Positions 7,341 to 30,480 of a DNA stretch of 39,095 bases are shown piece by piece. The position numbers and the translations under genes were made by a program. The notes beneath the pieces are model-generated. The model was given only the letters and a program-made list of their open reading frames with translations. It searched no databases and was not told where the DNA came from. The stretch comes from Neolecta irregularis DAH-3. Lineage: Eukaryota. Within the stretch, counting starts at the first letter, position 1, and every line of letters starts with the position of its first letter. The DNA lies in contig LXFE01000695.1 in assembly GCA_001929475.1 (NCBI GenBank), forward strand, positions 1 through 39,095, read 5' to 3'.

Positions 7341-10300
7341 TTACGTCTCACTCTCCTCATTCAAAGAATCCCCTTCAAAACACCACTCTCGAGCGGATTC
7401 GACAAGAATTCGAATACTCTCCACTCGATTTGCCCACATTGCTTCAGTAGGCGTTCTAATACAGTTAATAGGCTCCACAGTGTAGGTGGATACCTAAACG
7501 TCCATGCACGTTGACAGAGGATGACTTGCATTTGCTGAATGGCTTGTTTCAATCCATCCCTCTTAAAATGTGCAGGTTGTTTAATACTCTCACAGGCCAA
7601 TGACAAATCGTCATCTAACGAAGCGAAAATCTCCGAATCCCAACTCAGGGGGACGTTCGTCGGAGGAACAGGGAACACATGGCCAGCGTTGCCTCCACTC
7701 AAGTCGGACGGCGGTGAACTACCCTGGCGATGTACTGAGGGGTTCAGCAGAGATCCTCTCGCCATCCCTTGCAAAATACTTCGAGTCTCATTGAGCAGTC
7801 GTTGCGCTGGTCCGTATTTCTGTCTATCGACCAAACCAATCGCTCGGGCAAGCATATCAGAGGCAAGCAGCTCGACTCGTCGCTGCATAATTGCTGAATG
7901 TGGGGGAATACCATTACTGAATATCGTATCCAATTCGTTGGATTCAGGAGCTGGCTCTGCGGGAACCATGCTTAGGACCAGAAGCTGAGGTTGAGGAAGT
8001 CTATGGACAAATTTATCTTTAACTGGATCCGTCCAGGATAGGTTGACTGAGAAGATTGGTGCTTCTTCAATTAAATCCCCGGTGTCAAGTTCATAGCCAA
8101 CTTCTCCGACCGCTTCGAGACCTGATCGAATTGCTTCCCATGGGTCATCATGCATGGCGGACTTGTCCACTCTCTTCATATCTGTTTCGACAATGAGCTG
8201 GACGAGAATGTCCTTCTTATCACCGAAACGCAAATCACCAATTTCTGCTTCCGCCTCTCGACCATTTGCTCTAACGAGACACCTGTGAGCGCCAGAAACT
8301 TTGGCAAAATGGGCATGTGATCCTTCAGGTGTTCGGAGTTTAACTTTAAGCCTTTGATGAGAGAGATGTTGCAGACCGCCAAGACATCCCGCGACTGATT
8401 CTCGAAGCATGTACCAATCTTTAACATACGTATATGAACCACCGGTTTCACTTGCCAGATCTGCAAGTAGCCGAGGAACATGAGTCATTCCATAGCCAAA
8501 AGAATAGATCGCACTTCTTGAAATTCAATAGGAGGTCAAATTGGTTACATACTTGACGAGCTCTGCACGATTCAGGATAAAGTCTTTACCTTCTTCACCG
8601 GTGGGATCAGTTGTAGTTGGACAATCACTTATTAACAAAATATTGGCCAATGGATTTTTGGCTTTTCGTTGCATGAGAAGGTCCAGAGCTATACCATCAG
8701 TACAGCATCACTCAGAGCCCAAAGTACCTTGATTAATGCCATCAACTACATCTGAAGCATTTTTAACGTTCTTTGAACCAGCGCGAATCTTGTCAACGGC
8801 TTTTTCCCACTGAGCCCAACTCTTTCTCATAAAGCCCGTTTGAATCTCTGCGCCATTTTCAGAACCAAACAAAACAATCGCAATTCTATCGCGATCTCCC
8901 ATATTATGAGTGATAAATCGCAACGTGTCTTTAAGCAAAGACATCTTAAGACCTTGCATAGAGGTTGCAGCAGATGCTACAACCACGATGTCTAGAGGAA
9001 TATGGTGTTCGCCGAATAAGGGACCACCGGTAGTATTATATCTTCCATACGCATTATATGTTGGAGCCGTGAGGGCGGTGAACGCAGATGGTGTTATTGA
9101 TGCACGGTTTCGAGCAAAAAGGCTATTCTTTGAGAAAATTGTTCGAGTTTCCGAGCCAATAATTGAGCCTACATCGTCAAATTCACGACAATCATCACCG
9201 TCTTCAAAGTGACTGTATCGTCGATTGTCGTTTCTTGGATCAAGCGTATCTCGATCGGGTTCTTGTTGATCTTGGCCTAAAAGTGCTGACTTCCATTGTT
9301 GCAATTGAGATATAGCGGAGAAATTGATACTAAAGGATTCTAGATCATCGGTATCTAGTGTCATTGTAAGTGACAGTTCACCTTATCATTAACAAGCTAA
9401 AAAGAGGCAAAGGATTACCTCCAGCACTGGTGTCGACAACTCGTTGAATATGCTGAAGATAGATTGAGCCTTTCAGGGTATATTTGAAAGTTTCTTTCTT
9501 TCTTCCCCAAGTTGAGGGCGACTTCTGCTTCAAACATAACATGAGTTTCTCAAACAAGAAAACCTCAAATTCTCTCGACGATCCATTCATTCCAACAGCC
9601 AACACATCCCACATACGTAATTTTCCAGCTTGATGGATATTAATGCCACGCCAATTGATGACACTGTTTTTGAGATTCTCAAGTATAACTGTTTGGTTTG
9701 GAGGTGGGACATTTGGGACTTTGAGATATGATATCGCCTCTTGTTGAGATTTAATGTGTAGTTGTTGGGTGGACCGTTTGTCTGTCGACTGAGTGACTGA
9801 ACGGGCGTCATTCCCTTGTTTCTCGTCTGACATTTGCGAGCGAAACTCAGGGAAGCCAGAACTTACATGGAGTGAATCAGATAAACGTCTTCGAGCCGGT
9901 ATTTCGATAGTAACGAGACATGTTATACTTTGCGAATCTGGTCGACGAGTAATTGTAGGAAATTCTGAGCGAATGGTAACTCTGGGTCGTGGAATTTCAA
10001 GTTTCAGTGTTCGTGTATCAACTGGATTCTCCAGTTCTTGAGCATCCATGACGTTCAACGCACCTTGAATTGCTTTCACATTACTAGGACGGACTTGGCT
10101 ACTGGTGTGATAATTATCAGATCTTGTTCGCGTTGCCTTTTGGGAATACGAATCTACTTGATTAATCGACGACATTCGTTCACTCATACCAGGAGTTTGT
10201 CTTTTCGCGCCGCCTTTTAGGTTGAGTGGTTTACTACAAATCGCACATTGATTGAACTCTTTAGAAAACTCATGGAAACAATCTTCGTGCATTACATGTG

Positions 10301-10646
10301 TACAATCTATCGGTTCTATGACTCGTTCTCCTGGAAGGTTGTGAGCCAGTGATTCGCTTTCAATCAGTTCTGATGCTGTGAATACCATGAAATACCCGCA
10401 GACCGCACATTCGGCCTTTGAATGATTCGTATGCATATTAAAAGCACCATCGCTTTCTTCTGCTTTCCGTGCATGACTTGATGAAGGAGGAGCTCGATGA
10501 ATTCCCGATAACCCCTGATCTCGAGGGGACGTTTGGCGCAAAGCGGGAAGCTGCGATTCTAGAGGAATCGGCGTATTGAAGTAGCTGTTCTGACTTTTGT
10601 TTGACTTGGAGCTGAAGAAGTCGCGTCTTCTCCCAAAGAGCGACAT
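7341..10646 (-). CDS. RING-H2 + PH-like + von Willebrand A domain protein (Far1/Ste5-like architecture)
   Basis: CAVC...CTHVMHEDC...CAIC RING-H2; PH-like segment (LRMWDVL..EVFLFEKLMLCLK..YTLKGSIYL); VWA segment (PLDIVVVAS..SMQGLKMSLLKDTLRF..DRIAIVLF..ILLISD..SFGYG). About 6 short introns. The last exon ends ...NEESET* at 7341. Confidence 0.8.
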
Positions 10647-10813
10647 TGAGTAGGGAGGAATATGTCTGCAAGGAATGAAAAATGTCCTTCGCGTCCCCTG
10701 ACGCGAATCCTATGATTTAAGACCTCTGCCGGATACTATAAGTCACAGACAAATAGCCTCAGGTCGAGAAGGGTCGGAAACAAATCAGAGAGCTGCAATC
10801 CGGTATTCTTTAT

Positions 10814-10845
10814 GCAGAAGCAGCAGCAGAAGCAGCAGAAGCAGC
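10814..10845. repeat. Imperfect (GCA/GCAGAA)n microsatellite upstream of the RING-VWA gene
   Basis: gcagaagcagcagcagaagcagcagaagcagc seen directly. Confidence 0.75.
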
Positions 10846-11744
10846 GTAGACAGGGCAGAACAATGCTGCCTGCTGCGAGGCTCAGACAAGAGCGGTATCA
10901 GGGCACAGAGTAAGGTATTTCATATGAACTCCTCTAGTGCCCAAGTCGGCCCTGTGCTCCATATTTAGAGAGCAACTAGCGTGCTTCAGGTCTAGTGTCT
11001 CCAGGGGACGAAATCTGGGACAGCAAAGAATACACTGAGCTGCAAAGTTTGCTATGATACAAGCAGATGTGCAGAGTTAAGCATTTCGTCGCGGGCTAGA
11101 TGCCGAAGAGTGCGATGAGTAGTGTGAGTAGTGAGTTCAGTGAGACACCAAGATCATCCCGATTCTTGTCCAGAATGCGTCCGTTACAGCAGCAGTTTAA
11201 GAACCGTCGCGATCTTATGGTCTGCGTTACTGCTACCAGCGATATGCAGACGGAACCAAGATAGCTGAATTGCCGAGAGAAACCACATCTGTGGAAGTAT
11301 TCTTGCTGTATCACCAGTCGCGCTTGCTCACATGTGACGAATTCGACCGATGGGACAAGAGTTGCTAGCAGACACTACAATTGAGGTCGCGATGTCTGAT
11401 TTGGACTGGAAAATCTATAAAGATCCTTGTAAGAATGTCACTATCTTTGTGCAGTTGGTGTGCCATATCTGAAAGACCTAGCTATTCCCCGCGCTCCTAT
11501 ATATAGATATAGGGCTTGAATTCTGGGGAAGGTTTCGATGGTTCGGCTTTTCAAGGGGACAGTCATTACTGTACGTCATTCCAACCGAGACAACAGTGAG
11601 GGACTAGCAATCCAAGAGCACGAAGACAATGAAAAATTTATCAATAAGGCAGAAATCTTTTTGCTGGACGAGGACACAGTTTGATTGATATTGCACGCTT
11701 AAAAGAAAGTACAGCTACATTCAATTGCCCGAAACATAAACAAC

Positions 11745-12820
11745 TCAATAATAATCAGCCATCAAGACATCACTATGCAACCCTTTGGTACCAGGAGCAC
11801 TAATAGTAAGACCAAAGAGAGGGAGTAGGCGCATACTCGACTCCATAAAGTCCGTTTTGGTAGCTTTTGGGTGCTTGGGATGGAAGTTCTTTTGACTGAA
11901 CAGGCTTCGGTGCTTCTATTGGCTTGGGCGGACAGTTTGCAATCTTCACACGGAGTGTTTGCCCTGTGACGTCAGCATCGGCGAGGCCGAGGAAATGTAT
12001 ACCATCAGCGAGGACACCATCGAGATCCTTCACAGCAGTGGTAGCCGACGCATGATCTGCAAATATTACTTCACTTGAGACATTGTTCCCGGCCGAAGAA
12101 ACATGGCATTTTTGCACTTCTCCATAACGAGACATGAGAGACTACTAGTTAGAGATAATATACCCAAAGACATGCCCTGATATCGGGAGCAATGGTTCCC
12201 GCCGCAAGATTTTGGATGATGACGACAGTAGAACCTGATGTACCCTTAATACTCAGTTCACCATGACTGGCACTGCCTTTGATGGAAAAGTGGTTGTTGC
12301 TATTAGGCATTCTCAGGGGAGCTTTCTGGGGTTTCGAGACCCGGTTCACTTTGTTTAATCGAGCAATAATATCCCTACCGGTAATTTCATTATTCCTATT
12401 ACTCTTAACAGGCTTGGTCCCCTTCCCCAAATCTATGCGATTAAAGAGCGAATTTTCGTCGTAATCCCTGCTCTCTCTTTGCGCTGACAGTGGATTCCGT
12501 CTCAATTTGACTGAACCGATTCTTTGGAAAAGATCCTTGGAAGTACTTTCGCCGAATTTATCATGTTTCCAGGAGCCGTCAATGTTGGCTGTATCGGATC
12601 GCTGAAACATTCAGATATAATTCAAGTAGCAATGAGGCTACAGAATATTGATAAGGCCCTCCAGATCTCGGCTGACGGCCTTGATTTTGTCTTTGCGGAC
12701 CGCGGCTGCTGACTGGTTGAACGTTCTTTCTTTCTGTAAGATCAGCATAGAAGGAATACATATGCACATACTTTCAGGAGTAAGCTCGTCTAGCGAAGCA
12801 TCGATATTCATGGAGGACAT
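11745..12820 (-). CDS. RRM-containing RNA-binding protein (Yra1/ALYREF/POLDIP3-like)
   Basis: N-terminal MNIDASLDEL, WKHDKF motif, and C-terminal RRM (VIIQNLAAGT..DIR|SLMSRYG..EVIF..AVKDLDGVLADGQTLRV). Five short introns, one of them GC-AG (12142-12175). Spliced end GLHSDVLMADYY*. Confidence 0.7.
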
Positions 12821-13168
12821 ATCGAAATTTGGTAGGATGAGTTGCGGTTGAGGATACATTCAGGGCACGGGATCCAATTCCAAATCATCACAAAGTGAGA
12901 GCTTCTCCATTACCTTTAGGATTCAAGGCTGTCAAAGTGTATTCGCTGAACTATGGACAAGAAAATTAGGGAAAAGGATACATCGAAGAAAGATAACAAA
13001 ATGCTAAATCAACGATTACTAAATGAGCGGCAATCCCAGTAGCCTCGTAAGATATGCGTTAATCATAATGATGAGGACATGAAAAGAACATCCAGGCATT
13101 AGCTTAGCAGTACATTTCGTCAGCCCCGAATCCAAAATAAATGAAATGCCCTTGCCCATGTTGTCTAT

Positions 13169-16100
13169 CTAATTTTTGTCGGCTGCTGTAGCAGTCAGCG
13201 AAGATTCACCCAATGTAGATCCTTTAGGAAGTAAATTCAACCTTGGACGCTCACGATGTGGTTCTGTGGAACTTTCTGCTACAGCCTGCGAAGTGGTTAA
13301 ATCTTCAGTTTCGTGATTTTCTGCACCTGCAGCCGTCGAGTCACCTATATCCATATTCAGAAGACTTCATATCAGACAATGATTAAGCATGGAGCAAATA
13401 CTCAAACTGATTTACGGACTGAGCTGTGTGCGAGGCCTTTCGGATTACAGGGGTGCCACTTCTTGAAATAGAAGGTACTTCATCATCTTGAAACCTTGCT
13501 GGGTGCGACTTCTTTGTACCGTTCCCACTTGCACTTCGTAATGATGAAAATGCACCGCCAGGGCCCAGACCACTGGTCTGACTATTCGTCCTCATCATTC
13601 CAAGTCGACTTAGATCGCCAGCAAGAGCTTGCCGATTGGGGGTCTTAACAGTACTCCATCCATCTCCTCTTGTGCCTCCAGGGTTTGGAACACCGCCATA
13701 GCCCAAATTCCGATTCTGACCACGAGAATCACCCCTTCCGGCGTCTGAACGACGTGACTGCGCAGCCGATTTAGCAGCGGCTTCTTGCTGAGCCTTGGCA
13801 GCCTTTAGAGATTAAATTACGCAAAGACAGCAAGATTTACATCGGCATGAATCTCTGCAATAGTTTTCGGGCCAGCTTCTGCGGCCTTATCAAGCCATCC
13901 CTTCTTCCGAAGATCAATCAAATCCTGTAAAATATTAAAAATATCGCAAGAAAATAATGTACCATAACCATAAACTTCATACGAGATGGAATCTTACTTT
14001 CGAGAAGTTGTCCAAGTCGTTCAAAATAGGCAGTCATCCTGTGAGCCCCCTTATCCTTATCGAGCATCCCACCAACAGTAGTAAGCAATTTGCATAAACT
14101 CTCAACTTCTTCCTCCTCCGGGTCTGTGACATTTTGCAGCAATTTTGTCACGCACTCGTGCATAATTTTCTCGACTAACATACTTCGCTTGTATAGCTCA
14201 CCGATAAATTTGATAAGACCGAGACCACGCCGTTTGGCGGCTGCAGCAACATAGTATTCTTCGGAAAGCAATTCGGCTTCCTGAGGATTGGTAACTCCCT
14301 CTAGCTTGGGCGTAACATTCCAACCTCGTTCAAAATCTTCCTGACACCGATTGAGAAGGTATTTCCGGAATAAAAGACCGCCGCTGAGAGGCTGACCACT
14401 CTTTCCAAGAACTTTCTCATCCTTGATGTCGGAATTCATTTGATCCATCATATGTCGAGCAGAATCAGCATAAACACTAGAGAAATTGGGTTCATCGGTT
14501 GCTTTCTCAAATGTAAGTTGGATGACTTGTCGCAAGGTTTGGCCATCAGTTTCTCGTTTTGATTGAGAAGCAATATCCAGAATTTGTGCGGTGATTTTCT
14601 CTTCGTTATTTGGTGTAATCTTGTTGAGCAAAGCTTTAACTTTTCTCTGTACCGTATCAGGTGTCATCAATGGATCCTCGTTCCCTAAGGCAGGTCCAGC
14701 TTCAGCAGATATCTCCGCAAGAGCACGAGGCTTCCATCTAGACGCTGAAGCTTCGAGAGGCTTAATTTGATCGATTGGGATAGTGAGGCCCTTCTCCATA
14801 TCAGACTTTTCATGTCTACTTTTGCTCTCGGAGGTGCCACCGCGTCGAGATCCTCCCCCGCGGGTGGATTTCGCGCGAGGACTACCAGGAACCGCACCAA
14901 TCGATGTGGAGACACCAGAAGCAGAAGCGGAGCGGCCAGATCCTAAGGGTCCTAGGCTGGGTTTGAAATGGGCGCCCATAACCGGGAAAGCACCCACCGG
15001 TTGGCTTCCAGTTGCATTTGCTCCTCGACTTTGAGATCCGCCTTGTTTACTGGACAGTTCAAATCGTTGCTGCGAAGTCAACGTGGAAGCAGCAGGTCCG
15101 AGGCTAGTGAGTCCCAGTGATCCCATTGGTGGTGCACCACTAACTCGCGAAGCAGTTCGACCTCCGGTGCTTCGAGTGCTAGTAGGCCGAGATTCTCCGG
15201 ACAAATCACCGATAGTATCTCTTATCCTATCGTCCCAATCGAACATGGGCTTGTCTGTATAAGCAGCTTGGAACTGAAGCAAGAAATCTTTATCGTATAC
15301 AATACGGCCGGAGGGCGCATTCATATTGAGAGCAGGATTAGGAGATCTGAACCCCTCGGGGTACGAAACTTTTGTGATATCATTGATAAACTTGGAAGTT
15401 CGTAGAGCGGTGAGGGGAGCGGATGGTAATGGTTCGTTAATTTGTTTGGTGAGACTAAGGTTAAGCGATGACGGAATCTTTTTGTCCTTTTTCAACGGAG
15501 GAGGCATCGTTATGGCGTCTAATTCGCTTGAGGTGAACACCATTTCTGGAAGGGTAAGAGATCTCTTGGAATCGTCGACCTTTGCTTCTCGTTCATTCGT
15601 TAGGCGATTCTCCTCTTCTTGGGCCGTCTTTTCTTCCTCGGATTTTCTTATATCTTTGGCCAATCTGGCAGCGTTGGCTTCTTCCGCTTGACGCTTTTCC
15701 TCGGCAACTAGAGCAGCTTCTTCTTCCTCAAGTTTCTGTTTCGCAATTCGAGCAGCTTCCTCACGCATGCGTTGAGCTTCAGCGTCAGCAGCTTTTCTCT
15801 TTTCGGCTTCCTCCTCTTTTGCCTTTTCAGCCGCCTCTTGATCAATCTTGGTTTTTCTTTCCAGATCTTCTTTCTCCTTCGCAAGGCGTTCGCGTTCGGC
15901 CTTAGACTTTTCTTCGGCTTCAACTTTCTCGCGTGCTTCGCGCTCCTCGCGTTCTTTGACTTCGTGGATCTGTTTTATGAAAGTGGCTTTCTTAACTTCC
16001 GCTTTAGCTTTAGCATCGTCTTCTTCAACAGAATCTTTTTGAGAACCTGGGTGTTCACTCTCGTTTGCAATAGAGGGGGAATCAGTTTTCGTACGTAATG

Positions 16101-17390
16101 AAGAGACTTTCTTGGAAGGAACAATTTTTGCCACCACTTCTGATTTTGTATCTGGATTAATAATTTTTATCGCAGATGTTTTCTTAGTTGGAAGCTGGAA
16201 TTCAGTTGCCTTTGGAGTTGATGGAACAACAGAAGTAGCACTGGCAGAATGGCGATGGCTTTGGGCATCTGAAATAGTTGAGGCTGATCGACTCATTGGA
16301 GGAGGGCCGAATGAGGGCCCCACGGGACTGACATATGCCGGGCTGGAAGAGGCTGTGTAAGCATTGTTGGGTCGGGGACTTGCTGGCGTAAATCCGTGGC
16401 TGGACACTCCCATAGGACCTGCGTAATAAGGATAGTTAGGGTCCATCATGGGTGGATAGCCAGGCTATATAATTAGATGAAAGTTATAGGAGAATGACGC
16501 ACGTATGTAGGAACCATATAGGTAGGAGTCTGCAATGGACTTCCCATAGGCATTTGTGCATGAGGTTGAGCGTGAGTTGTAAGTGGGCTCGGGAGAAGAT
16601 TAGAAGCTCGAGGACTTGGCCTTGTTCGACTTCCCGGTTGGTTGAAGGGCATGGCGGGGCTCGGATTGTTGAATCCTCGCTGAGAAACCATAGGAGAACG
16701 GAAGTTTGAATTCTGGTATCCGCCCGGATATCCGTTGTACTGACCATGCTGAAACTGCTGCCCATGAGCAAAGTGGGGTTGCGCATATGCCTGTTGTGGA
16801 GTGCGTCGCGGAGACTGTGCGATCTCAGACATATGGTTCTGGTGATGAGCATGTTCTGCAGAGGCAGAGTGCGTTGAATGCACAGAATCGCGGCGGACCC
16901 GCGCAGGAAGAGAAGTCTGGCCGGAGATCGGAATGGAACCGTTGTGTGATTGAGAACTCAAGACATTAGAAACCTGCTAGAAGGCTTAGCCGCAGCAAAG
17001 ATCGGCCGGCAGTACTTCTTTGTGCGAAACGGGAGCGGGAGGGGTAGCAGTACTTGCGGGTACTTGCGCAGACTCATCTCGAATTCCTGCGCTATTAGGC
17101 ATTTCTGCTCGCTTTTCTACAGCCGGCTGTTTCAGAGGTACTGGGGTGGGACCGTTCGTCAAGGTCACTGGCTGTACAGGAGCAATCGGATGACCGTTAG
17201 TCTTTGTTGGTTGCTGTTTCACTGGAGCGCTGGACGCGACACTTGCAGAGCGGCCATATGTTGCTGGTATCTGGGGAACGGCAGGCTTGGGAGTCTGAGG
17301 CACTTGTGTAGGTGGCGGATGGGAAGAAATTTGCTGGGGAGGCGGCTTGGGGGCAGAAGCAATTTTAGACCACGACTGTTGCTGCATCAT
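13169..17390 (-). CDS. eIF4G: Eukaryotic translation initiation factor 4G
   Basis: eIF4E-binding motif YDKDFLL (YxxxxL-phi); MIF4G domain (VQRKVKALLNKIT..FEKATDEPNFS..FRKYLLNRCQEDFE..KRRGLGLIKFIGEL..EEEVESLCKLLTTVG); Pro/Gln-rich N-terminus; five coding introns. Confidence 0.93.
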
Positions 17391-17711
17391 CTGCGAAAAA
17401 ATCCGCCGAGATCCTTCGCGTATGGGACAAAGGATGAGTGGAAGAAACGACTCACCTACAGAGTGGCAAACAAGCACGGGGGTGGGAGGGAGGGTGCCTG
17501 CAGAAAAGGGCAGGCTCGCTGGTGGAGGGAAGAAATTACCAAGCTCGCCTGGTGGTGGTCAGTTGGTGACGCCGCTGATTTTACTGCAATCCGCAGGTCA
17601 GGGATTTCTATTCACATAGATATTTGCAAGGCGCAAGGATGGAAATAACGCGCTATTCTATACTGCCTACCTCTACAACCATTATCTGTCATATCACTTG
17701 CAATCCTGCGT

Positions 17712-19500
17712 TTAGTGGCAATAGAAATTTTCCTAGGATCCATGAGCTCTCTCTTACACAGACTAAAGATCTTATACCTCCGGTATACGTCCCCGCAAGT
17801 AAGGTGGTTCGGATCCAGGCCTGCCTATATCAGAATCATGGAATACGGAATAACTCGTACACGTAGACATCTTTGAACAGAGTCTTTGGATCTGCTGCCG
17901 GATCTGGCGATTTCTCTGCTTCCTTAGTTTCAGCCTCTACACGAGCCCGAGCTTCCTTATCAACTTCCTATTGGCTAATGAGATCAAGCTAGAGGTCGAT
18001 TTGTACTTTCAACTGGAATTCACTCAAGACATTCCATTCCAAGATTTTTGCTTTGAGTCCTGCAATAGCATCATTTGTTGACCGCATATATTGGATTTCC
18101 TCTCGAGTTCGATACTGCATAATCAGCTGATAGTCGAAGCTCAAACAAACCGTCACACCAGGGTCAGACATGCTGTGACCACCTTGATGGTCTAGTCATG
18201 TTTCACGTGAAGATCGCATACCATATCTATAAGTCTCAAATTCAAGGACCAGAGGTCCCTTCCCGCTTGTTGTCCATTCTTTGGCAAAACCACTAGCATG
18301 TTTGACCGCAAGAACATCCATTCCATTGACTTTAATACCAGGAATATACTGCCCTCTTTTATAGTACTCCGTCAGAGCACTGCTTCTCTCAGCCGAAGTT
18401 CCCTAACATCGTTAATGTTGCTCTCTCGGCTCCTCTACCATGCCGTATTTGTTGTTCTCGCAGGCAAAAACGCAAGGTAGATCCCAGAGTTTGGCCATAT
18501 TAAACGCCTCGAAAACTTGTCCTTGATTTGAAGCTCCGTCGCCATATAGCGTGAAGGCACAGTTGTCACGTCCCATATATTTGAGTGCAAATGCTAGACC
18601 AGCACCCACAGGAACCTGGGCACCAACAATACCATTTCCTCCAAAGAATCCTTTCGTAAACATATGCATTGAACCGCCTGGACCGGTAAGTGCCTGTGCA
18701 TATATCGTGTGGAACCTTTTCCATGCGCAATGCCGTCTTGGCGTCCTAGCAATTCGGCCAATATGGATTTAACCGAGCCTCCTCGCATAAGGGTGAATCC
18801 TAATGATAAGAGCAATCTAGAAAGGGGACATGCCATGACAACGATAAGCTGTGATAACCTGATCATCAGTTAGCAAACAACCTCCATCTCGGAATATCTT
18901 GCCATGTCCTCTATTTTGAGTCAGCAAACAGTAACGAGCTTGAAGAAATCATGCCCTTGGTAATAGCTTTCTCAATACCGACAGCGATAGCTTCCTGTCC
19001 AGTTGATAGGTGACTTGTCGCTGATTAGTAGATTTATTTAGGACCTGTCATTCATACCAGCTAAATGTGGTCAGCGATAAATACCATGGACCAAAGAAAG
19101 GGAACTATACAATCCTCGAATTTTCTTTGCTTTGTATAAAGCATCTGCAGCCATCTCTAATCGTCGAATAGTGACCATATCGGTATACCTATAAAATAAG
19201 AAACTGCTGGTGAAGGATGCATACATGGCAATTAATTCCTTCTTCGTGACATCCACCTCCAATTTCGGGCCATCCAATTTATAGAATTCGAAGCTGTCCG
19301 AAGGAAGGGTTACTTTAAAATGCTCATCGTCTTTTTTGGGCTTTTTTTTGACATCTGCCTGGGATGAGGCCGCGTCTATTGTAACTGTTCTTAGAAACTG
19401 CACCTGGTCACTTCTCGTTTTTTAAAAACCTTCGTACAGGGAGAGTTTTGTGAATTCTATTCGAAAAGAGGGATAAGCGGGCGAAGGGACGGGGCAGCAT
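17712..19500 (-). CDS. PDA1: Pyruvate dehydrogenase E1 alpha subunit, mitochondrial (about 14 introns, micro-exons)
   Basis: [91 protein letters not shown], all reconstructed across short introns. Confidence 0.95.
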
Positions 19501-19905
19501 AGTAGCAGACCTTGTCAGCAACTTTTGGTGGTTGTAACTACAATTTTTGGGGAGCCATAAGCCCGCATATTTTTCCTACTCTCAATAATTATTTACTCAG
19601 AACAATCATACTACGTTCAGGCAATAAATATTTTGGTAGTAGTCTAATCTTATCAGCAAGGTAGTAACGGGTCGGAGTTACGGAAAAGGGTTTCAACTGG
19701 CCATTTGATCGCTTGTACTTTTCTTAAATCCCGCAGTATTGTCTTGAGCAGTCTACTATTTTCCCGTTATTACTCTGTATATTGTCTTTTAGTTCAACAT
19801 AGTGTACATAAATGTGATACCTCTGTAGAGTCGCAGTTGCATGTTGCGAGTTGCGTCTACGGCAAAAACAAATTGCCTCACCCATCCTATTTTCAAAACA
19901 CTTCC

Positions 19906-21145
19906 ATGATATTTAGATTTGGGGTTTCCTCTATTTCCCGTCCATCCCGGGGTCTCCTCTCACTCCAACGACGATCTTTTTCCATTCAACCACCTGCGCG
20001 ATCGACATATTATCGAATTCCGCGCAGGCCGCAGTCCTCCCGAATCGAGAATTCCCCTCGGCGCTCCATATCATGGCGGAACCGTATTTCCACATTTCTG
20101 ATAGGAGGCGCGACTGTCATGGGCGGCAGTAGTATGCGCATTTGTAAAAATCTCTTTTTGAAATTTAGTTTATTTCGTCTCTCACCTCGAGACCGTCCCT
20201 ATGACTGGCCGCTGTCGGTTTATCGATATGTCACCAGAGGAGGAGCAAGAGCTATCCAAAGTTGCCTACCGGGAAATTATGACTAGATACCGAAACCAGA
20301 TATTGCCTGGGAACCACCCAACATCCAGGTTCGTGAGCAATGTAGCTCAGAGAATTATCAAAGTCTCTGGGTTAGAAGGCCTGAGATGGGAGATTCATGT
20401 CATCGATAGTCCCGAGAAGAATGCATTCATACTTCCAGGTGGAAAAGTGTTTGTCTTCACGGTATGTTGAATAAGAACCGGACCATGCTGATTTTCACTA
20501 GGGGATCCTACCCCTTGCACAGAATAAGGTACCATATATATTCCGGATCTTGTACTTATGCTTATAGGATGGCCTTGCAAGCGTCCTTGCACATGGTGAG
20601 CCTTTTTTATATGATTTATTCCATTAACCCCAATGATAGAGGTTGGCCATCAAGTTGCGCGACATATTGCAGAACAAAACAGTTTTGGGAAAATCATTAT
20701 GCTGGTTAGGTTGCTTTTGACTTTTACTTTCGGCGATTCTTTAGGTATTGGTGGGCTTGTTACAGAGTTTGGGTTGGCTATGCCATATTCTCGAAAATAT
20801 GAATCTGAAGGTATCTCCATGAATATCTGGAATCTAACTGTTCAGCCGATTATATTGGTCTGCTATTGATGAGTCAAGCTTGCTTTGATCCTGGTGAAGC
20901 AAAACTCTTCTGGCAGAGAATGGCTAAAGCTGAGACGTCTTCAATGCCACAATTTGTCAGTACACATCCTACCCCAAAGAATCGATCGAAAAACATTGAG
21001 AAGTGGCTTCCAGAGGTATATTCCCCTACGTAAGACGCACTGGATATCTTAGGCATATGAAAACCGAGCTTCCAGTGACTGCGAATCTCACCTTGGGGGA
21101 ATTTACGATCAGTTTGTTCGACATACTAATTATGCAAGTTACTAG
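19906..21145 (+). CDS. OMA1: Mitochondrial inner-membrane M48 metallopeptidase
   Basis: VPMTGRCRF, WEIHVIDSPEKNAFILPGGKVFVFT|GILP, LASVLAH|EVGHQVARH (HEXXH), PYSRKYESEAD, FVSTHP. Six introns. Arg/Ser-rich presequence. Confidence 0.9.
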
Positions 21146-22074
21146 TGTGGTATTTCACATTTTTCACATACAGTATGGCTAGTGAGCATTGCATTGCGCA
21201 CCTATTCCGATAATAGATTTCTTAGGAGGTCCAAAATCCAGGTCAAGAAGTGGCGTGCAAACCTGCATGACTTGTAAATAGTCTGTACCTCCTATCCATT
21301 TTCCCTAGTTGGTCGTCTTTCCTTATTCTAAATCTCAAATCTCTTCAAGTCACGCTAATTGCAGAACTTGTCACATATGGTTGTTAGCAACAGGAAGCTG
21401 AAGTCTTGGACAGTTGAGTGAGAACAATGCTCTGAACTCAATACCTTTTCCTTAACAAAAGAGTTCCCAGCCTCAAGATTATGTTGACAATACCGAAATA
21501 CCGAGGGCCTCGAGCTTGTTGACTACCAAAACCAACTCATTATTCAATTTGGATTCATCTCATGACATCAGTATCAACTACAGGTATCAATATCTGATAT
21601 CAAGAAACAATTCCATATATCTTCTACAAAGGACTATCCTCAAAGGACCCAAATCTTTTTTTGGATATGTCCCGTGCACTAAGACATGTCAGCATTCCCA
21701 CCCAGCTCTTAGCAATATCATGCAAACTCCGCAATTACAATCTTCCATAGCTACGTATTATCCATTCACATAAGGCATGATGTAACAAATGGAGATTCCT
21801 TTTCATTATGTAAGTTGTAATGAAGCGGCCGACCCTTGTGCTTTAAAATATTACTGATTCGGACCACCTTGAAAGACTGGTGCCGTCAAAATTTGGGAAA
21901 GAGCATTGCTATCAATCTCGCTCTTGTTCTGTGACAGAATCTCTTTGAACATTATGACAAATCGACGGAATCTCTCGAGATCTAAACAACTGGAAGACTA
22001 AAGTACATTAGCAATGTTACAAATGCATGACACAACGCTCAAAACAAAGACATGTATACGGAGAGTAAGTGGAC

Positions 22075-23191
22075 TCAAACTGCACTTTGTTGTTCCAGTT
22101 GCTGCTTCTTCCTCGCAAGATACCGCTCCCGCGCGCTCAGAACTTCGCTCTCAGTTTTCGTTCTTTTTATCCTCTCTTCTAGTTCCTGCTGTTTGAGTAC
22201 CTCTTCCTCTCGGTCTCTTTTCATGTTCTGGGCCAGCTGCTCCTCTACCATCCGACTCTGTCGAGTTCGGCTTTCTTTGTTGTTATACCGATTTGACTGG
22301 TAAATTTTTCGAGCTTCTCGGGTAGATGTCTCGGTCGTGGCAAGATGGGATGATGAACATTCGCCAGTATTTAAACCAGCCGCTAGGAGTTGACGCTTAT
22401 CAACGATCTTCCCTTCATCATTGAGAACCACGTTTGTGCCTAGTTTCTGAGTAGCTTCATTTGCTTTTTCAATATCGGATTTTTCAGTCGTCTCCTTTCT
22501 GAGAGGCCCAATTAGATTTTGTTTGTTGGATGCGGCCTCGACTGCTAGTTCGTGGTTCTGTTCGTTCCGATCGAGAATGTTTCTGTAAAACGTTGCCATT
22601 CCCCTCGATTTACTTCGTAGAGCAGCTTTATCATGAATGACCATAATTAGAACAAGGAGATACCTTCTCGAGCCTCTTCTTCGGCCTCGAGTTTCTTGAG
22701 TTCTTGTTGTTGTTGTATGTATGCGGTAGTGACGAATTTTTCCTTGTCTTTGTACATCTCCCCTTCTGCTTCCCGTTCTCGTTGCAGCATTTTCTCTTGT
22801 GCCATCAGGAAATCACGTTTACGTACCTCTGCGGCCGCAAGCAAATTCTCCATATATTTTGGCTGAGTCGTTAGTTTCAGCTCTACTAAACTGGATCCAC
22901 CTTCCGTTCCTTCCTCTCGATCTCCTCTGCTGCTCTCTTCTTTTGCTCTCCTACCTTCATGTTATCGAAAACCTCGTCATATTCGTATGTCGAGGGATCG
23001 ACCTCTTCTACGGGATGCGCAGATATATTGTCTGAAAACTTCAATTGTCGATTCACTTCTTGTTTCGGATCGGGTAGAGCCTCTTCATCATCAGTATCAA
23101 ACCGAATGCGAGATCGAGAGCTCTTCTCTAGTTGTTTCTTTTTTATATTGAGGCCATACTGAAATTGTGACTTTATTGGCTGGTTTGACAT
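22075..23191 (-). CDS. Nuclear speckle splicing regulatory protein 1 / CCDC55 (DUF2040) homolog
   Basis: FQYGLNI, YEYDEVFDNMK, PKYMENLLAAAEVRKRD, EREAEGEMYKDKEKFVTTAY, SARERYLARK. Two introns. Confidence 0.85.
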
Positions 23192-23327
23192 TAGAGTTGG
23201 GGTCCAAGACTGTTTCGAATCAAAGGCGAGACTTCGAAGGAATCGTGTGTGCAAAAATATATAGTATAAATAATAATCTACTATATGCCAAGAGAAATTG
23301 AGAAGAATAGTTCTCTGTTCACGAGCG

Positions 23328-24524
23328 TTAGAATCTTGATCGCCTTTGTTGGATTCTCCATGCAGTAAACCCGGCATATCCGCCCACACATACTGCGAAG
23401 AAAAAGAATATCTTGACCAAAACCCATCCCCATGATCCGCTCTCGGATTTTTGTGAAGGAAACTTCCTACCTGGTCGCTTGGGTAAAGTGCCTGGTTTAG
23501 GAACACTATAAATATTTCGACTTGAAACAGCGATGATATCGTGATTATCTATAATCAACCAGGTTCGAAAATGAGGAAATACCGCTGACTTCGCCAGTTA
23601 AAGCCGTAAACCCAAGGTACGAGAGAGACGGAAGGGCGACATTCTTGATATTGAAACAAGAAGTCCATTCCCCTTCCTTTTGATATTGAAGTTCAAGTTC
23701 AAGGTAATTATCCTTGTAATAAGTCAATTTTGCTTTCGTAGGGATATTTGCTCCACGTATTCCACGAGCCTAGTGATGAGTCAAGAAATCCGGATTTAAT
23801 TCATACTGTACAACTCCCAATATCATTGGCCATTCCATCATGGGCATTATCATAGGAGGTCATTCCATCCCCCAACATCGCCGTTACGAGAGGGAATTGT
23901 CCAGGTCGAGCTTAATGATAAGCCTTGCTAGGAAGAGGGAAGTGCACAATTCTTGTAGGTATCGAAGAAAATTCCCAGTCCTTCGAATTTATCTATAAAT
24001 CCGAATACCGGGCCTTGAACAGCCCGTTCTTTAGTAATCCACATGGCAAATCCGTCTCCAGAAACTCCAGTGGAAGAACCAGAAATCTTGAATGTGACTT
24101 CGATCTGTTCAGTTAGTTAAAGTTTGAAAAGTCACAGTACCTCAAAGTTTGTTATTGAAAGCGGTAATCGAGAGAATAGCCACCCGGATTGGCCGGGACG
24201 ATCATGGGTCAATCGAATGTGCCTAAATGGGGGTTAATTTTCATGAAGGAGAGGCATCATTGTTCAGACTTATTTGTGTTTATCACAGTATCTCCACCAA
24301 AATCAAACCTGGAGCTTGAAAATCGCATAGTCGGAATTTGCGTACCATCGAGATTGGATGTCTTGATCCAAATAAGGGTGATAGAGCGAATGTGTACGTA
24401 ACATGACACTTTTGAAACCTGGAGCATCGGAAGTACCCCCAGCACCAGAAGCGCTAGGACCGTCGATTGCACAGACGGGTGCCAAAACCAGTAGGAAAGG
24501 CAGAATTTTTAACAATTGGTGCAT
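23328..24524 (-). CDS. L-type lectin cargo receptor (VIP36/ERGIC-53/Emp46-47 family), type I membrane protein
   Basis: Signal peptide, LRTHSLYHPYLD..FDFGGDT, GDGFAMWIT, GIFFDTYKN, YLGFTALTGEVS|DNHDI, C-terminal TM segment plus RRSRF tail. Six introns. Confidence 0.88.
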
Positions 24525-24621
24525 TGGAGTGCAAGATCGCAGGCTGCCTCGTCGCTCTTAAGTTTTCCCAGTCACGTTATAGTCGGGAACCCTATCCACC
24601 AAACCTAGCATTCAGTCAAGC

Positions 24622-24975
24622 ATGGCTTCGGAACAGAAAAAAACCGAAATTATGGAGCAGGTTACTCGTTCGATGCAGGTTTGTTACTGGGAAACACATA
24701 GAGATAATATTACAGGTTGCAAATGTTTCTGAGCTCGTTTTAGTATAGAGCTTTCTTTGCCTAACCTTGTTGATAAAAAGAAATCGACCGAGTTATGCTA
24801 TTCAAAGTGTATTCAACATCCTGGGCCATCTCTGGACAGCTCACAAAAAGTACACTAGTCACACTGATTCTGTCAACTAATATTTCAGAAATGCTCCACT
24901 CAATGTCTAGATAGGTATCTGGAAGCCTGGCAGGTGGTTGCCGAGACTCTGAGCAGAATCCAACGACAAAGTTGA
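24622..24975 (+). CDS. TIM13: Small mitochondrial intermembrane-space chaperone, twin CX3C (Tim13), 79 aa; absent from the ORF track
   Basis: Exons 24622-24678, 24716-24742, 24781-24849 and 24889-24975 splice to MASEQKKTEIMEQVTRSMQVANVSELVLKSTELCYSKCIQHPGPSLDSSQKKCSTQCLDRYLEAWQVVAETLSRIQRQS*. Confidence 0.9.
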
Positions 24976-24983
24976 CATGATTG

Positions 24984-26083
24984 TTAGAGTTTTGGCCCTG
25001 GAAGCTGTTTAATCCCTCTGTTTGAGTTTGCGAATTGCCTGACAAGGACTGTACATGATGTCTCCTTACACAGGTCCTTGCGCTTTGAAACGGGAAGCTT
25101 GTTTAGAAATTCCAGCCCTGCTGCCCTGAAATTGTTAGTCATGATGATCCTACTTTGATATACCTTTCAATAGCCTCCAAAGGCATCTGGAAATCCGTCA
25201 GAGGTGTACTATCGGGAATTGAAACTGTTGAATTGGGCATGACAAAAGCTGCCACAGCAACTTGCTCGGTTTCCCCATTATCAGCCACAATAATTTTGTA
25301 AAAATGAGTTGGGACGGCTACATTCGGTGGTGTTCCAATGACTTCGTAGGAAACCCTCCATTTTCCGTCTTGATCCTGCTTGGGGAGATACAGAGGACCG
25401 GTGATAATCCGCACAGTTTGGTATTGTGCCGTTAGACGACGGCAAAAATCTTCAAAATGTGCCCAATCTAAAGTCAGAGCATGAAGGAAGAAAGTGAAAT
25501 ACAGTTACGGTTTAACTGGGGAGTTTGAGGACAAATGTTGGATAATATAAAAGTCTCGTTCATGGCTTCTTGAGAGATTTTGGCATCTGCAGCAGGAGCC
25601 TAGGTGATCAGGGCAGCTAGGCCTAAGAGTTGTACCTGGTGGCCTCGATCGTAACCGCTACGACTATAATCCGACAGCTTGGTCCGAAATTTTAACGGGA
25701 TTTCTGCATCCTCATAAAATTCACTATTCTTGCGATCTCCGTTTTTGCGCTCTAGCGATTTTGCCGTCAATACTTCGGCAACCTATCATACATCACTTTG
25801 AGATCCAAGGAAAAAGGAGCAATACCCAAGCAGGATTTCTCATTCGACGGTCATACAATGAGATAAAAGCCTTCCTATTGCCGATATCAGCAGATATAAG
25901 TGGCGTTCCGTATTTAAGGATCTCATTTGGATCGACAACTGCAGTTGCGGTGGGGGAAATTACGAGCGCTGTTCTCTTTGAGACGGATGAAGACGAGGAG
26001 TCCTTTTCCCAGGCAACAGATGCGCCAACAATAGCACCACCGACAGCAGTGCCGAGAGCGAATGCGATAATGCGAGCAGGCAT
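24984..26083 (-). CDS. NUC1: Mitochondrial DNA/RNA non-specific endonuclease (EndoG family)
   Basis: YDRRMRNPAW|VAE, SGYDRGHQ|APAADA, ETFILSNICPQ, ITGPLYLP..VSYEVIGTPPNVAVPTHFYK, IER|AAGLEF. Four introns; stop at 24984-24986. Confidence 0.92.
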
Positions 26084-26341
26084 CGATTTTTCGATTTGGA
26101 GTCTACCAGAGAGACTGGTTGTTTTGCCGAGTCAGATACAGTCATATATGCATACATGCGATATTATCCAAATGCAGCCTTGTATAGTTCTGCCTACTGG
26201 TCTATGTTTCTTTGTTCTTCTCGTTACATGACTGGGGTAATATTTGGTTGTGTACCGTCACAGTCATCGCTGAAACCGTCAACTCCACCTTGAGCAACGC
26301 TTTTGCATGCTATTAATATCACAACTACTGTTGTAAGAGTG

Positions 26342-27771
26342 ATGGACCAAGCAGAAGCCCACGGCTGGGTGTTGGCTGCTGTGACTGCCGCATTGTGCGT
26401 CTCTTTGGAATTCCACCCGACCTCTAACCTCGCAGATGCTTTCTGGGTGGGCTGCTGATCTATGTCGATCTTCCTATCCGCCGGTTTACGCCATGGAAGA
26501 CTTTTGATATCAAGACCGACAAAAGGATCCTGGTAGGAGGTCTCAGTCTTGGTTCTGGTGTTCTCGTACGATTATCACGACCTAGCACGGTTGACAATGG
26601 TAGTTATTTACCGCGTTATGGGAGATGTTTCCGGTGTCAAAAGGTTATATTGAAAAATCTAGCAAAAATAGAGATATTCCCTATCCCGTTTCTGTCATGT
26701 TCATCCTTGTTGGCACGTTTATGCTTGGTGTCATTGGTTGTACGGCTCTGAACATGCTTATTCACCAATTTACACCAGGTACCCATACTTGACATTTCAC
26801 ATTCTGATCCTTTCAGAGTCAATAGTCCACTGTGGAGGTCATGGAAGAGAGCAGAAAGATTTTTTCAACGATCCCGAGTTGGGAATTGTCGCGCGAACTC
26901 ATGGACAAACGCCAGGCGAATGTAACAGCGACGAGGATTCTCCCCTCCTTCGTCCCATCAGTGCTGTTTCATCCCGTGATGTACCTTTCTTTCCTCAATT
27001 ATGTTAACTGGGTACAGACATGTAACTCGATAAGTTCCTGTGCTGGATATACCAACCCGTGTGTTAAGCTCTGCGAGGGTCACGAAATTCATAAGACATT
27101 TCGCAGACAAAAGTCCTGCCAATTCGTTATGAATGAACCATTTTTCAAAACACCGCGACAGAGTTCTGATAGTCTGGAAAGACATACTCATCGTCTTTCA
27201 GGAACTTCCCTTCATGCGGAACGAACAAGGCCCTTGATTCATCATCACCATAAAACTGACGAGAGTCTCAATATGTGGTCTATAGGTGTCCAGACTGCTG
27301 CTGCCATTGGGATGCACAAGTTTCCTGGTATCTCCTTTACGTATGGACCTGCTAACCAAGGCAGAAGGATTCATCATGTTCATGACAAGTCAAGCAAACA
27401 TGGAACTTGGAATTTTGCTGTGTTTAGCGCTCGGGATTCATAACATTGTTGAAGGGTTAACAATTGCACTTCCATTATACGTAGGAACTGAATCTCGTTG
27501 GAAAGCATTGCTGGCTGTCTTTGTTCTTGGCGCTGGCGCTCAGCCATTTGGCTCGTTGGTCGCAATGATGTGGTTGCGCTCGGGTTCTGGTATCAACGAC
27601 ATGGTTTACGGTCTGATCTTCGCTTTTACTGCCGGCTTTATGACCTTTATCGCTATTTCTTCTATGTTATTTCAAGCTATTCGAATGGATACTGGAACAG
27701 GACGACTTGTCACCACTTGCTTCTTCGCCGGCGTAGCACTAATCGGGATTAGTTTGGCATTATTGGATTAA
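26342..27771 (+). CDS. ZIP-family zinc/iron transporter (Zrt3/Zip2-like)
   Basis: GLSLGSGVL|LFTAL, His-rich loop (IHHHHK), IGVQTAAAIGMHKFP|EGFI, LGIHNIVEGLTIALPL, AFTAGFM. Five introns. Confidence 0.88.
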
Positions 27772-28000
27772 GGGGATTTTCAGTGACTCCCAGCTGTCAT
27801 GTAGCTTAAGATTGAATTAGTCGGTGTTGATCTTGGGCCAAAATGTCACACCAGGTTTGATTTTATGAGTATACATTGCAAGATCTAGATTAACAGAAGA
27901 TAACGAGCACAGAAAAGACAAAACGAAAGGTCATAGGATCTATTTTACTTAGAAAGATCAATAGGCTTTCGAATAACTACATTTTTTCCTTATGCAGCCT

Positions 28001-28551
28001 TTAAAAAGGCTTTCCCTGCATACATTCTCGGCAAGTATGTCGGCTTGCAAAGTTGGTGAAACCACATACACATTTCCAGTCTCCCTCTCGAGTCTCAATG
28101 CCGTCATTTGAATCATTGGAGAACATATTTCTAGTCCCTCGAGCTATACAGTTAATAACAGAAGAAGTTAAGAATTCTTACATTGGACATTGGTTTGGGT
28201 AATTTGTCGTCCATTGCTGCTAGGATTTCCACAACTAAAGCATACGTGGTTTCGCGCGTAATTGTATTTTGTGCAATCACAAACCCAATCTCCCTCTTGT
28301 CCGGCCCTCTCAGTATCCTTGGTTAATAGCTCAGAACACTCGAAGCAGGAGGCTCGAGATGCAAAATTATGAGCGCTACATTTTGGACAAGTCCAGTCTC
28401 CGATTCTCATGGTACCAAATCCTTGAACTTTTTTGGTGGCACAAATATGCTTTTGTAACTGAGTTGCTGCAGGCCGAAGGTTGAGAATTGTCTTCGTAGA
28501 AACAGCTCTAGACAGGATACGACGTACTGGAGCAAGGAGGGTTCTGAACAT
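28001..28551 (-). CDS. Protein with three RanBP2-type zinc fingers and a putative mitochondrial presequence
   Basis: GDWTCPKCSAHNFASRASCFEC, GDWVCDCTKYNYARNHVCFSC and, after one intron, GDWKCVCGFTNFASRHTCREC; stop at 28001-28003. Confidence 0.85.
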
Positions 28552-28744
28552 GATGAATGATGTTGGTGCAAACTAAAAGGTGTTGCGAAGAATTAGAAAA
28601 TTTTTCCGCAAACTGCAGAGATTTGATCGAAAGAATTTATTTTTTCATTTTAGAACCAAATAAACCTCCTTAAATTCTTTGAATATTACATGAATGAACT
28701 TTTGTGTTTTTTCTTTCTTCCGATCCAAAACCTGTCCCTGACCT

Positions 28745-30480
28745 CTATCGGTTGCGATATTTTACGTCCCAAGTATACGAATAGAACAAAGCTCCAATAG
28801 GCTGTTGATTAGCAGCCTCTCTAAGTACAAGATACATGTCCCAGAAGACAAAAGGTAATCCAGAAGATACAATTACCAATGATGGTTGCTTGTTCTCCTC
28901 GCATCTTTGATATTTGTTGAGTGAGCATGATCAATGGGATTTGTAAAAGCATTGCGACAAATGCGACACCCATGAGAGAATGGGTGGGAATCCCAATTAG
29001 GATTTCGTGTAGAAATGCGCTGAAAACAAAGACCATTATGCCGGCTTGTTTGGGTGTATATCCCCGTTGCACCAAGGGCATGTAAACGTGCCGTCTAAAG
29101 AACATATAAACAGGGCGATTCCAGAGGCGCCAATCTGAATATCAGTATAACCGACAAAAATCTGCGAGCACACAGCTTTCCCTGCGGTGTTAACTGAATA
29201 TAGCAGGGAAGAGTAATACATGTCGCCAGCATTCCACCAGTCGAGATAGAATGTTCTATCCGCGAATCTCATAGCCTAGCGACCATCAATCAAGGATACC
29301 AAGAAAATCAAGCTTACCTCAGCACAAGCATTCAACCCACTTTGGAAGAAACAAAAGAATCCTGCACACCAGCAGATAACACTGATCGTGCTCAATTTTA
29401 ACAAACGCTCGAGTATCCGTCTGATGTCGAGATTCTCCATAGCCTCAACTGAGTTCCTACAAAGAGGAACAGCATATTGTGCAACAATAAACCATAGAGC
29501 GAAAAGCAAAACCAAGAATTCTGTGGCTCGTTTGATAAAGAAACTTTTTCGAAACCTGGCCGTTCGCGGGTAGCAAGGTTGATATATCAACGTGGGTGCT
29601 AACCAGAAGTACAACAATTGGTGGATAGATAGGTCCGGATACATAGGGCCATCCATATATGCTGCGGGAATTGGTTCTGATTTCAAGTATGCATCTCGAA
29701 GGTCACGGTTGGTAAGGGCGTAAGAAGCAAGCTTTAAGCAAACGATAACTGAATTCCATGAACTAAATCCATAAAGGGAGCGTACCTGCATGCGTTTCAG
29801 TGATAAAGCCCAGGACGGGATGATAAATCCGCGTGTATACAGCCCAACTACTAATACCTAGACAAAGAGCCACATTCGCAGAATGAGCCAAAGCAATTAT
29901 ATCCCACCACTGTCGCCTCTTCGTTACCGAACCATCTTTCTTAGCGCTGAGAGATTCTTTCGCAGCAGAAACTTCGATGACGAAAGATACGAGGAGATGT
30001 AATGGAATTGCAAATGCAAGAATGCTCGCAACAAGAAAGTCCGACGTTCCAAAAAGGTTTGTGGGGATGGTGAGAAGAAGGCCGTACTGTTGTACATGTC
30101 AGCATTTGTATCAGACAGAGCCGGGATGTATACTTTGGCATGATTCTCGATAATCAAACGCAGATTGTTAGCAACCAGGACTAAAACTAGCTGGATAAGC
30201 AGATTAAGATAAGTAGGAATAGAGACTTGCGAGGTTTCGGAAGCCTGAAGGGGTCAATTAGGTTCAATACTTTCACGCTTGTACCTCTCAGAGAGAGACT
30301 CTCTGCGGAGTCTGAACTGAAGAGCGAGGCGGTTGAGTGTGTATGGATAGCAGCAATATGTGTGAATGGGAAGTTCTTGCCAGCATCATGTTTAATCTGG
30401 ATTTTCCTTTCTTCCTTTTCGCGTTCTACTGAATCTTGTGAGGAGACGACATTAGCTACGGCTGATATGTCCTCTTTCAT
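28745..30480 (-). CDS. MBOAT acyltransferase, DGAT1/sterol O-acyltransferase family
   Basis: GFRNL..NNLRLIIEN, LKLASYALTN, YFWLAPTLIYQPCYPRT, ERLLKLS, MRFADRTFYLDWWN, YWRLWNRP, SAFLHE (catalytic His), GNCIFW. About 8 introns. Confidence 0.9.

Follow-up and report, generated by a model that had tools for sequence, protein, structure and literature searches.

Introduction

GT-AG introns make up 98.7% of introns in fungi (Frey & Pucker 2020, PMC7072748), and GC-AG introns 0.37–0.87% in five model species (Sheth 2006, PMC1557818). In the GC-AG class the other donor positions lie closer to the consensus, which compensates for the mismatch of position +2 with U1 (Sheth 2006, PMC1557818). Three further kinds of splicing unit come close to the case reported here. 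Constitutive micro-exons of plants (PMC8831610) and the 4-bp exon of human MPC1 (PMC9929638) had been missed by annotation; duplications of introns within the same gene and introner-like elements are documented in fungi (Collemare et al. 2013, PMC3609843); and in stwintrons (PMC8469720, PMC9024468) two splice units stand almost back to back. Here we study a stretch of 39,095 nucleotides from the ascomycete Neolecta irregularis DAH-3 (contig LXFE01000695.1 of assembly GCA_001929475.1, positions 1 to 39,095 of the forward strand), which is called the window below, and in it the gene PDA1, in which three consecutive introns, I1, I2 and I3, very probably are genuine U2-type GC-AG spliceosomal introns that are removed in the assembled transcript. 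We found no literature on GC-AG introns or micro-exons in Neolecta, and in the main text of the Neolecta genome paper (PMC5309816) the words ‘intron’ and ‘splice’ have zero occurrences.

Like the U2-type GC-AG introns described before, I1–I3 join a GC donor to an AG acceptor, would be served by the ordinary spliceosome and match the consensus better at the remaining donor positions. They differ in that three of them stand in a row within 155 nt, with two flanking an exon of 8 nt, and in that they are very short (34–44 nt). PDA1 also contains an exon of 3 nt, and both of its micro-exons resemble those of plants and of MPC1 in being tiny, kept in the mRNA, frame-essential and likewise absent from the annotation, whereas here the setting is a fungus whose introns are ∼38 nt long, and the 3-nt exon is common to two metagenomic ascomycete lineages. 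The length of the 8-nt exon is not a multiple of three. The likeness to stwintrons lies in the two splice units that are almost contiguous, and the difference in the 8-nt and 3-nt bases between the PDA1 introns, which stay in the mRNA.

Results and discussion

The PDA1 gene and its cluster of GC-AG introns

The Pfam domain E1_dh (PF00676) was found in two exons of the gene with E-values of 2e-33 and 3e-20, the six best matches in the PDB were all human pyruvate dehydrogenase (PDH) E1 alpha (E ∼2e-37), and the named homologues of the exon translation were fungal PDA1 or PDH E1 alpha proteins. Hence, by homology, the gene is that of pyruvate dehydrogenase E1 alpha, PDA1. Its exon at 18439–18675 on the minus strand encodes 79 residues that are 100% identical to a deposited protein, P0001, which is considered further below. 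The introns range from 34 to 50 nt in length, and the spliced open reading frame (ORF) is intact, with ∼72–75% identity of its product to other ascomycete PDA1 proteins. The features discussed are collected in Table 1. Read along the minus strand, the cluster runs from AAGG through I1, the micro-exon AGGACATG, I2, an exon of 25 nt and I3 to GATTC.

Table 1. Features of the window discussed in the text (a slash in a donor marks the boundary of exon and intron; X2 is a sequencing run whose contigs are described below)
Feature	Position	Strand	Description	Evidence
PDA1 coding region	17712–19500	minus	ATG at 19500, TAA at 17714–17712, 14 introns, 407 codons	Pfam, PDB, spliced alignment, walk along the coding sequence
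Intron I1, GC-AG	18911–18954	minus	44 nt, phase 1, donor G/GCATGA, 3′ end AAATAG, branch GCTGAC	alignment, X2 joint
Micro-exon AGGACATG	18903–18910	minus	8 nt, completes E, encodes D and M	X2 contig letters, alignment
Intron I2, GC-AG	18859–18902	minus	44 nt, phase 0, donor G/GCAAGA, 3′ end GATCAG, branch GCTAAC	alignment, X2 joint
Exon of PDA1	18834–18858	minus	25 nt, VITAYRCH and first base of G	alignment; residues invariant in fungal alignment
Intron I3, GC-AG	18800–18833	minus	34 nt, phase 1, donor G/GCATGT, 3′ end CATTAG, branch-like CTCTTAT	alignment, bin depth
Micro-exon CTG of PDA1	19058–19060	minus	3 nt, completes F and starts C of GFCHL	alignment; X2 joint from 19014 to 19111 with AG between
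Micro-exon GGAAAGCT	29174–29181	minus	8 nt, in a predicted gene other than PDA1	X2 joint from 29134 to 29219 with AGCTTTC between
Fourth GC-AG intron	12142–12175	minus	34 nt, donor G/GCATGT, branch CTCTAAC	X2 joint from 12141 to 12176

We aligned three fungal PDA1 proteins (P0002, P0107 and P0014) with positions 17300–19700 by a purpose-written protein-to-DNA spliced aligner that allows introns in three phases. With GT as the only donor the scores were 1285, 1296 and 1307, and they rose to 1344, 1347 and 1364 when GC was admitted at an equal penalty; the aligner then picked precisely the three introns of Table 1. In the GT-only alignment the conserved block was swallowed by an ‘intron’ of 119 nt. 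To guard against over-fitting, we also let the aligner use GT plus one further dinucleotide at a time, for all 15, over positions 18716–19013. The gain was +51 to +59 for GC and +20 to +26 for the runner-up AT, and at least nine dinucleotides gained 7 or less. The invariant block D..IT.YRCH.F of PDH E1 alpha is present after GC-AG splicing, by which D127, I130, T131, Y133, R134, C135, H136 and F138, invariant in all eight aligned fungal sequences, are restored.

When all 16 donors were allowed, two of the three queries favoured an AA..AG ‘intron’ at 18969–18882, drawn by a TDDQ that lies in frame at the 3′ end of I2; this candidate is excluded by the X2 transcript contig described below. The last 12 nt of I2 (18859–18870, minus strand) read T-D-D-Q in frame with the VITAY exon and resemble the PDDQ of Saitoella and Tuber at the same place, and they are not used by the transcript. 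This resemblance is probably due to chance, and could be a relic.

Splicing of the cluster in the assembled transcript

Contigs of two sequencing runs, X1 and X2, were compared with positions 10001–30000 of the window (20 kb). Here the X2 contigs skip 54 short stretches, on both strands, and the X1 contigs skip none. The 15 of these 54 X2 joints that were listed span 34–41 nt and, read in the direction of the gene they lie in, begin with GT and end with AG, except for one with GC..AG, and 12 of 12 X2 pieces were at least 99% alike to the window. Because its contigs skip intron-like stretches, X2 was treated as a transcript assembly, and we infer that it is derived from RNA of the same organism. 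One X2 contig, with a depth of 266.7, joins position 18859 to 18955 with ATGTCCT in between, and with the C at 18859 in front, these letters read as AGGACATG in reverse complement. Since the letters of the micro-exon sit in this joint, I1 and I2 have been removed from the transcript and the 8-nt exon has been kept; for the same reason we rejected the reading of the pair as a stwintron in favour of two separate introns. For I3, the mean X2 depth in the bin 18672–19338 was 147.1, where a contig of depth 266.7 would give 147.1 with the seven introns in the bin all spliced out and 160.7 with I3 retained, and this arithmetic indicates that I3 is removed as well. Moreover, shifting a junction by one base yields only GG..TA, GG..CA or CA..GG ends, and thus no GT-AG placement fits the mRNA. 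The first-pass annotation, made from the letters of the window, had proposed three consecutive GC-AG introns around an 8-nt micro-exon, and this was borne out by the aligner and by the X2 contig; the 14 residues of PDA1 that it took to be regained in this way are regained as well.

Retention of any one of I1–I3, or skipping of the micro-exon, leads to an early stop, and mis-splicing would lower PDA1 output. In other systems, regulation may act on GC donors and on micro-exons. A microexon switch is described in Trichoderma (PMC11121469). On this basis the cassette might be a regulated splicing checkpoint, such that PDA1 output follows splicing efficiency, for example with the carbon source; the first-pass annotation had suggested such a bottleneck on the entry of pyruvate. 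We consider it very unlikely. The sole transcript form seen is fully spliced, in assembled contigs that do not report retention levels or conditions, and a premature stop upon retention would be expected of almost any intron. Furthermore, unrelated genes nearby also have micro-exons and a GC-AG intron (Table 1), so these features are habits of the genome and not specific to PDA1, and the suggested bottleneck finds no support.

The introns are very probably of the U2 type, with compensated donors

To describe the introns of the region we used a catalogue of 30, of which 21 were seen as X2 joints (15 listed rows and three double rows) and the rest, those of PDA1, were placed by homology and depth. 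They measure 34–50 nt with a median of 38, and the two shortest, of 34 nt, are both GC-AG introns with the donor GCATGT. The combination of G at −1, A at +3 and G at +5 is present in 4 of 4 GC donors and in 2 of 26 GT donors (Fisher P = 5.5e-4), the 26 GT donors being degenerate, with G at −1 in 10, A at +3 in 22 and G at +5 in 12. The first-pass annotation had taken the GC donors, as not all perfect, for a sign of an unusually tolerant spliceosome; measured against the other donors of Neolecta, the counts point the opposite way. Near the 3′ end, the branch A of GCTGAC in I1 and of GCTAAC in I2 lies 11–12 nt from the end of the intron, and a branch-like motif lies 8–11 nt ahead of the AG in each of I1–I3. 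U12-type introns have the branch motif TCCTTAAC. As neither this motif nor a U12-type GC donor is present in I1–I3, these introns are, from their sequence motifs, not of the U12 type; their donors GCATGA, GCAAGA and GCATGT differ from the U12-type GC donor motif GCATCC (PMC1557818).

The mechanism is most likely ordinary compensated GC-AG splicing in a genome with very short introns and frequent micro-exons. A C at +2 would cost one base pair with U1 snRNA, and G at −1, A at +3 and G at +5 would offset this loss in the pairing with U1 and U6. Introns this short are probably recognised one at a time, that is by intron definition, which would explain the survival of exons of 8 and 3 nt between them.

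Several observations weigh against reading I1–I3 as U2-type GC-AG introns that the assembled transcript lacks. Neither run is on record as RNA; X2 carries the label ‘DNA?’, which is itself a guess, and its origin from RNA is deduced from the skipped introns. Removal of I3 is deduced from depth, its joint not being among the 15 of 54 joints listed, and the CTCTTAT at its branch is a weak version of the motif, of a kind that also occurs in the PDA1 GT intron 19189–19224. Assembled contigs lose rare forms, and partial retention or alternative use is possible. Finally, the GC bases are confirmed by an X1 genomic contig (17554–28846) that has the same GC bases, no differing letters and a word depth of ∼430, and X1 is possibly the assembly's own source and hence not independent. 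This last point also bears on an artefact, in which GC would stand for GT through assembly errors or the locus would be a decaying pseudogene, as X1 is the sole genomic run that covers the site. The first-pass annotation had allowed for GC as a consensus error for GT; as an independent check on this, the X1 contig carries little weight. Three identical errors exactly at +2 are very unlikely at this word depth, and the gene has an intact ORF at the identity to ascomycete PDA1 given above and is expressed at the X2 depth of the joint, so we regard an artefact as exceedingly improbable.

A possibly raised tolerance of GC donors in the genome

A cluster of three GC-AG introns is statistically unusual, while the intron type itself is known. 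It is possible, though less likely than not, that the cluster reflects a genome-wide property, a spliceosome that takes C at +2 far more readily than that of other fungi, so that GC-AG introns would amount to several percent of the total and three in a row would be less surprising. Four GC-AG introns fall in two genes within one window of 39 kb. We took the 20 kb compared to contain ∼57 introns (54 joint rows, up to three of which cover two introns each) and the whole window to contain ∼80, the latter by extrapolation, with an ab initio finder that recovers 24 of 29 known introns. With ∼57–80 introns, the probability of at least four GC donors at a rate of 1% is 0.003–0.009, a figure that assumes independent sites, which the three in PDA1 may not be, and disregards that the window was followed up on account of these introns. 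The local share of 4 in ∼57–80 is above the usual share of below 1–1.3% (PMC1557818, PMC7072748). The degeneracy of the GT donors, with G at +5 in 12 of 26 and at −1 in 10 of 26, suggests a weak reliance on U1 pairing.

Outside PDA1, however, one of the 17 RNA-supported introns listed has a GC donor, and the probability of at least one at a rate of 1% is 0.16. All GC donors are strongly compensated, as would be needed by a normal spliceosome. In a position-weight scan, GC candidates were not in excess of GA or GG candidates once the four known introns were set aside: at a score of at least 12 it returned 15 candidates with T at the second donor position, 5 with C, 3 with A and 2 with G, where the known GC introns were part of the training set and the fifth C candidate was an alternative acceptor for I1. 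The ab initio coding-chain finder, which is too noisy for such counts, chose GC 6 times and the control donors GA and GG 12 and 9 times, respectively, and its GC candidates at 8689–8739 and 30181–30230 both have GT alternatives. Loose donor and branch patterns were counted for all 16 dinucleotides, and GT itself was not enriched among them, so that these counts were set aside as uninformative. An Rfam search of the window for snRNA gave zero matches. The window counts and the one in 17 outside PDA1 hint at a share of GC-AG introns above ∼1%.

Intron positions in other fungi and the origin of the cluster

We scanned metagenome contigs for PDA1 and obtained 80 loci, in which the segment corresponding to residues 85–185 of P0107 was considered. 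The segment leaves no room for an intron in 62 of the 80 loci (excess of at most 9 nt) and has an excess of at least 50 nt in 18; some of the contigs may be transcript assemblies or come from intron-poor yeasts, and ∼35 loci show introns somewhere. We aligned 17 of the 18 intron-bearing loci, leaving out L050, whose numbers duplicate those of L049. Among the 17, 13 have one intron, between Q112 and E113, one has a phase-1 intron at segment residue 70 and one has none. Two loci, L026 and L072, have segment introns of 33–41 nt and an intron exactly at the position of I2 (phase 0, between residues 128 and 129), with the GT donors GTGAAC and GTAGCC. Their whole genes (1318–2767 in L026 and 360–1769 in L072) contain 6 and 7 introns, respectively, all GT-AG, and 6 of 13 comparable Neolecta intron positions are common to one or both of them. 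Two longer introns, of 62 and 87 nt, are present in L026. At the positions of I1 and I3 there was no intron in any of the 79 loci that cover residues 125–137 (L032 starts at 141).

An exon of L072 is 92% identical to unnamed metagenome proteins, 80–82% to Orbilia and allies, the closest named relatives on this exon, and 77% to Neolecta. Judged by sequence comparison, neither L026 nor L072 is closely related to Neolecta, and they are an ascomycete lineage with tiny introns like those of Neolecta. The CTG micro-exon of PDA1 is flanked by the GT-AG introns 19061–19110 and 19014–19057, both of phase 2, and the same two phase-2 introns surround a 3-nt exon in L026 and L072; because of this shared structure the 3-nt exon is probably ancient among ascomycetes. 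In our reading I2 and the 3-nt exon would be old, and the donor of I2 would have changed from GT to GC on the line to Neolecta, a switching between GT and GC at a homologous site that is also described for U2-type GC-AG introns. I1 and I3 would most simply be lineage-specific gains. Thus the position of I2, GT in two lineages and GC in Neolecta, offers a natural experiment in donor evolution, in which I2 is flanked by GC introns at positions unique among the sampled lineages and all GC donors have compensating positions. The two micro-exons of PDA1 provide a clean, transcript-supported case of 3-nt and 8-nt exons in a fungus, whose use is presumably constitutive.

I1, and perhaps I3, could also have been copied locally from the older I2 in the Neolecta lineage, GC donor included, either by the duplication of an intron within the same gene, of the kind cited above, or by reverse splicing into the same transcript. 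The distribution of positions given above fits such copying, and the positions of I1 and I3, as with introner-like elements, are not seen in other sampled fungi. I1 and I2 are neighbours of equal length (44 nt) that have GCAWGAT in common at the 5′ end, and likewise TGTTTGCTRACT at the branch; the score of their global alignment ranks third among 406 intron pairs and was reached in 3 of 2000 shuffles. But once the splice-site ends are removed, their local score is 10, within the shuffle null (mean maximum 11.1). With the ends included they share 25 of 44 aligned bases, which is not the near-identity expected of intron copies. The top global pair, 12142/13803, behaves in the same way, with a score of 15 that falls to 12 without splice ends, within the same null. 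Nor are introns of one gene more alike than those of different genes (5.55 within and 5.61 between genes; 3019 of 5000 permutations gave the observed value or a higher one). I3 is unlike I1 or I2, ranking 175 and 406 of the 406 pairs, the flanking exon bases are not duplicated, and 30 queries run by blastn-short against the window found no related copies (best non-self E 0.046). The introns thus differ from introner-like elements, which are near-identical and form multi-copy families, in that I1 and I2 have no significant similarity apart from the splice signals and no such family is present in the window. Finally, the donor of I2 is GT in L026 and L072, which means that any source with a GC donor would have to be recent. 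We regard an origin of I1 or I3 by copying as unlikely. A wider scenario is about as doubtful: the site would be a hot spot of intron gain, in which I1 and I3 were seeded from I2 after its switch from GT to GC under a spliceosome that tolerates GC at several percent. If it were true, the run of GC donors would be a fossil of intron birth beside an old intron.

The deposited gene model

The deposited protein P0001 (1808 aa, ∼11400–19500, minus strand) is a chimera of PDA1 and eIF4G. In it 28 out-of-frame residues replace the invariant ITAYRCH, and YRCH is absent; lacking the 3-nt exon, it reads GLYTATSHL instead of GFCHL. Moreover, its acceptor at 17821–17860 lies 4 nt upstream of that of the transcript, and therefore the stop codon of PDA1 is never reached and translation runs on into eIF4G. 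The public gene model is wrong at PDA1, with GT donors placed at the GC cluster and with both the micro-exon AGGACATG and the 3-nt exon missed. A corrected model of PDA1 is the practical result of the present work. Comparative studies often draw on the Neolecta genome as a ‘living fossil’, and similar errors are expected throughout this intron-rich genome from GT-only splice models that do not handle micro-exons.

Other micro-exons and GC-AG introns in the window

The second micro-exon of 8 nt, GGAAAGCT, is flanked by the GT-AG introns 29182–29219 (38 nt) and 29135–29173 (39 nt). At the fourth GC-AG intron, 12142–12175, X2 skips 34 nt with CT..GC ends on the plus strand, and the reading frame is continuous across it. 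The exon downstream of this intron matches positions 18–61 of RRM_1 with an E-value of 0.015, which is under the Pfam cut-off; the intron interrupts this RRM-like domain, in a gene that lies downstream of eIF4G. Across the 20 kb compared there is a sole base difference, at 11777, where the window has G and the X1 and X2 contigs have A. Positions 182–191, close to the beginning of the contig, are a run of 10 N, and the region around them has 59% G+C.

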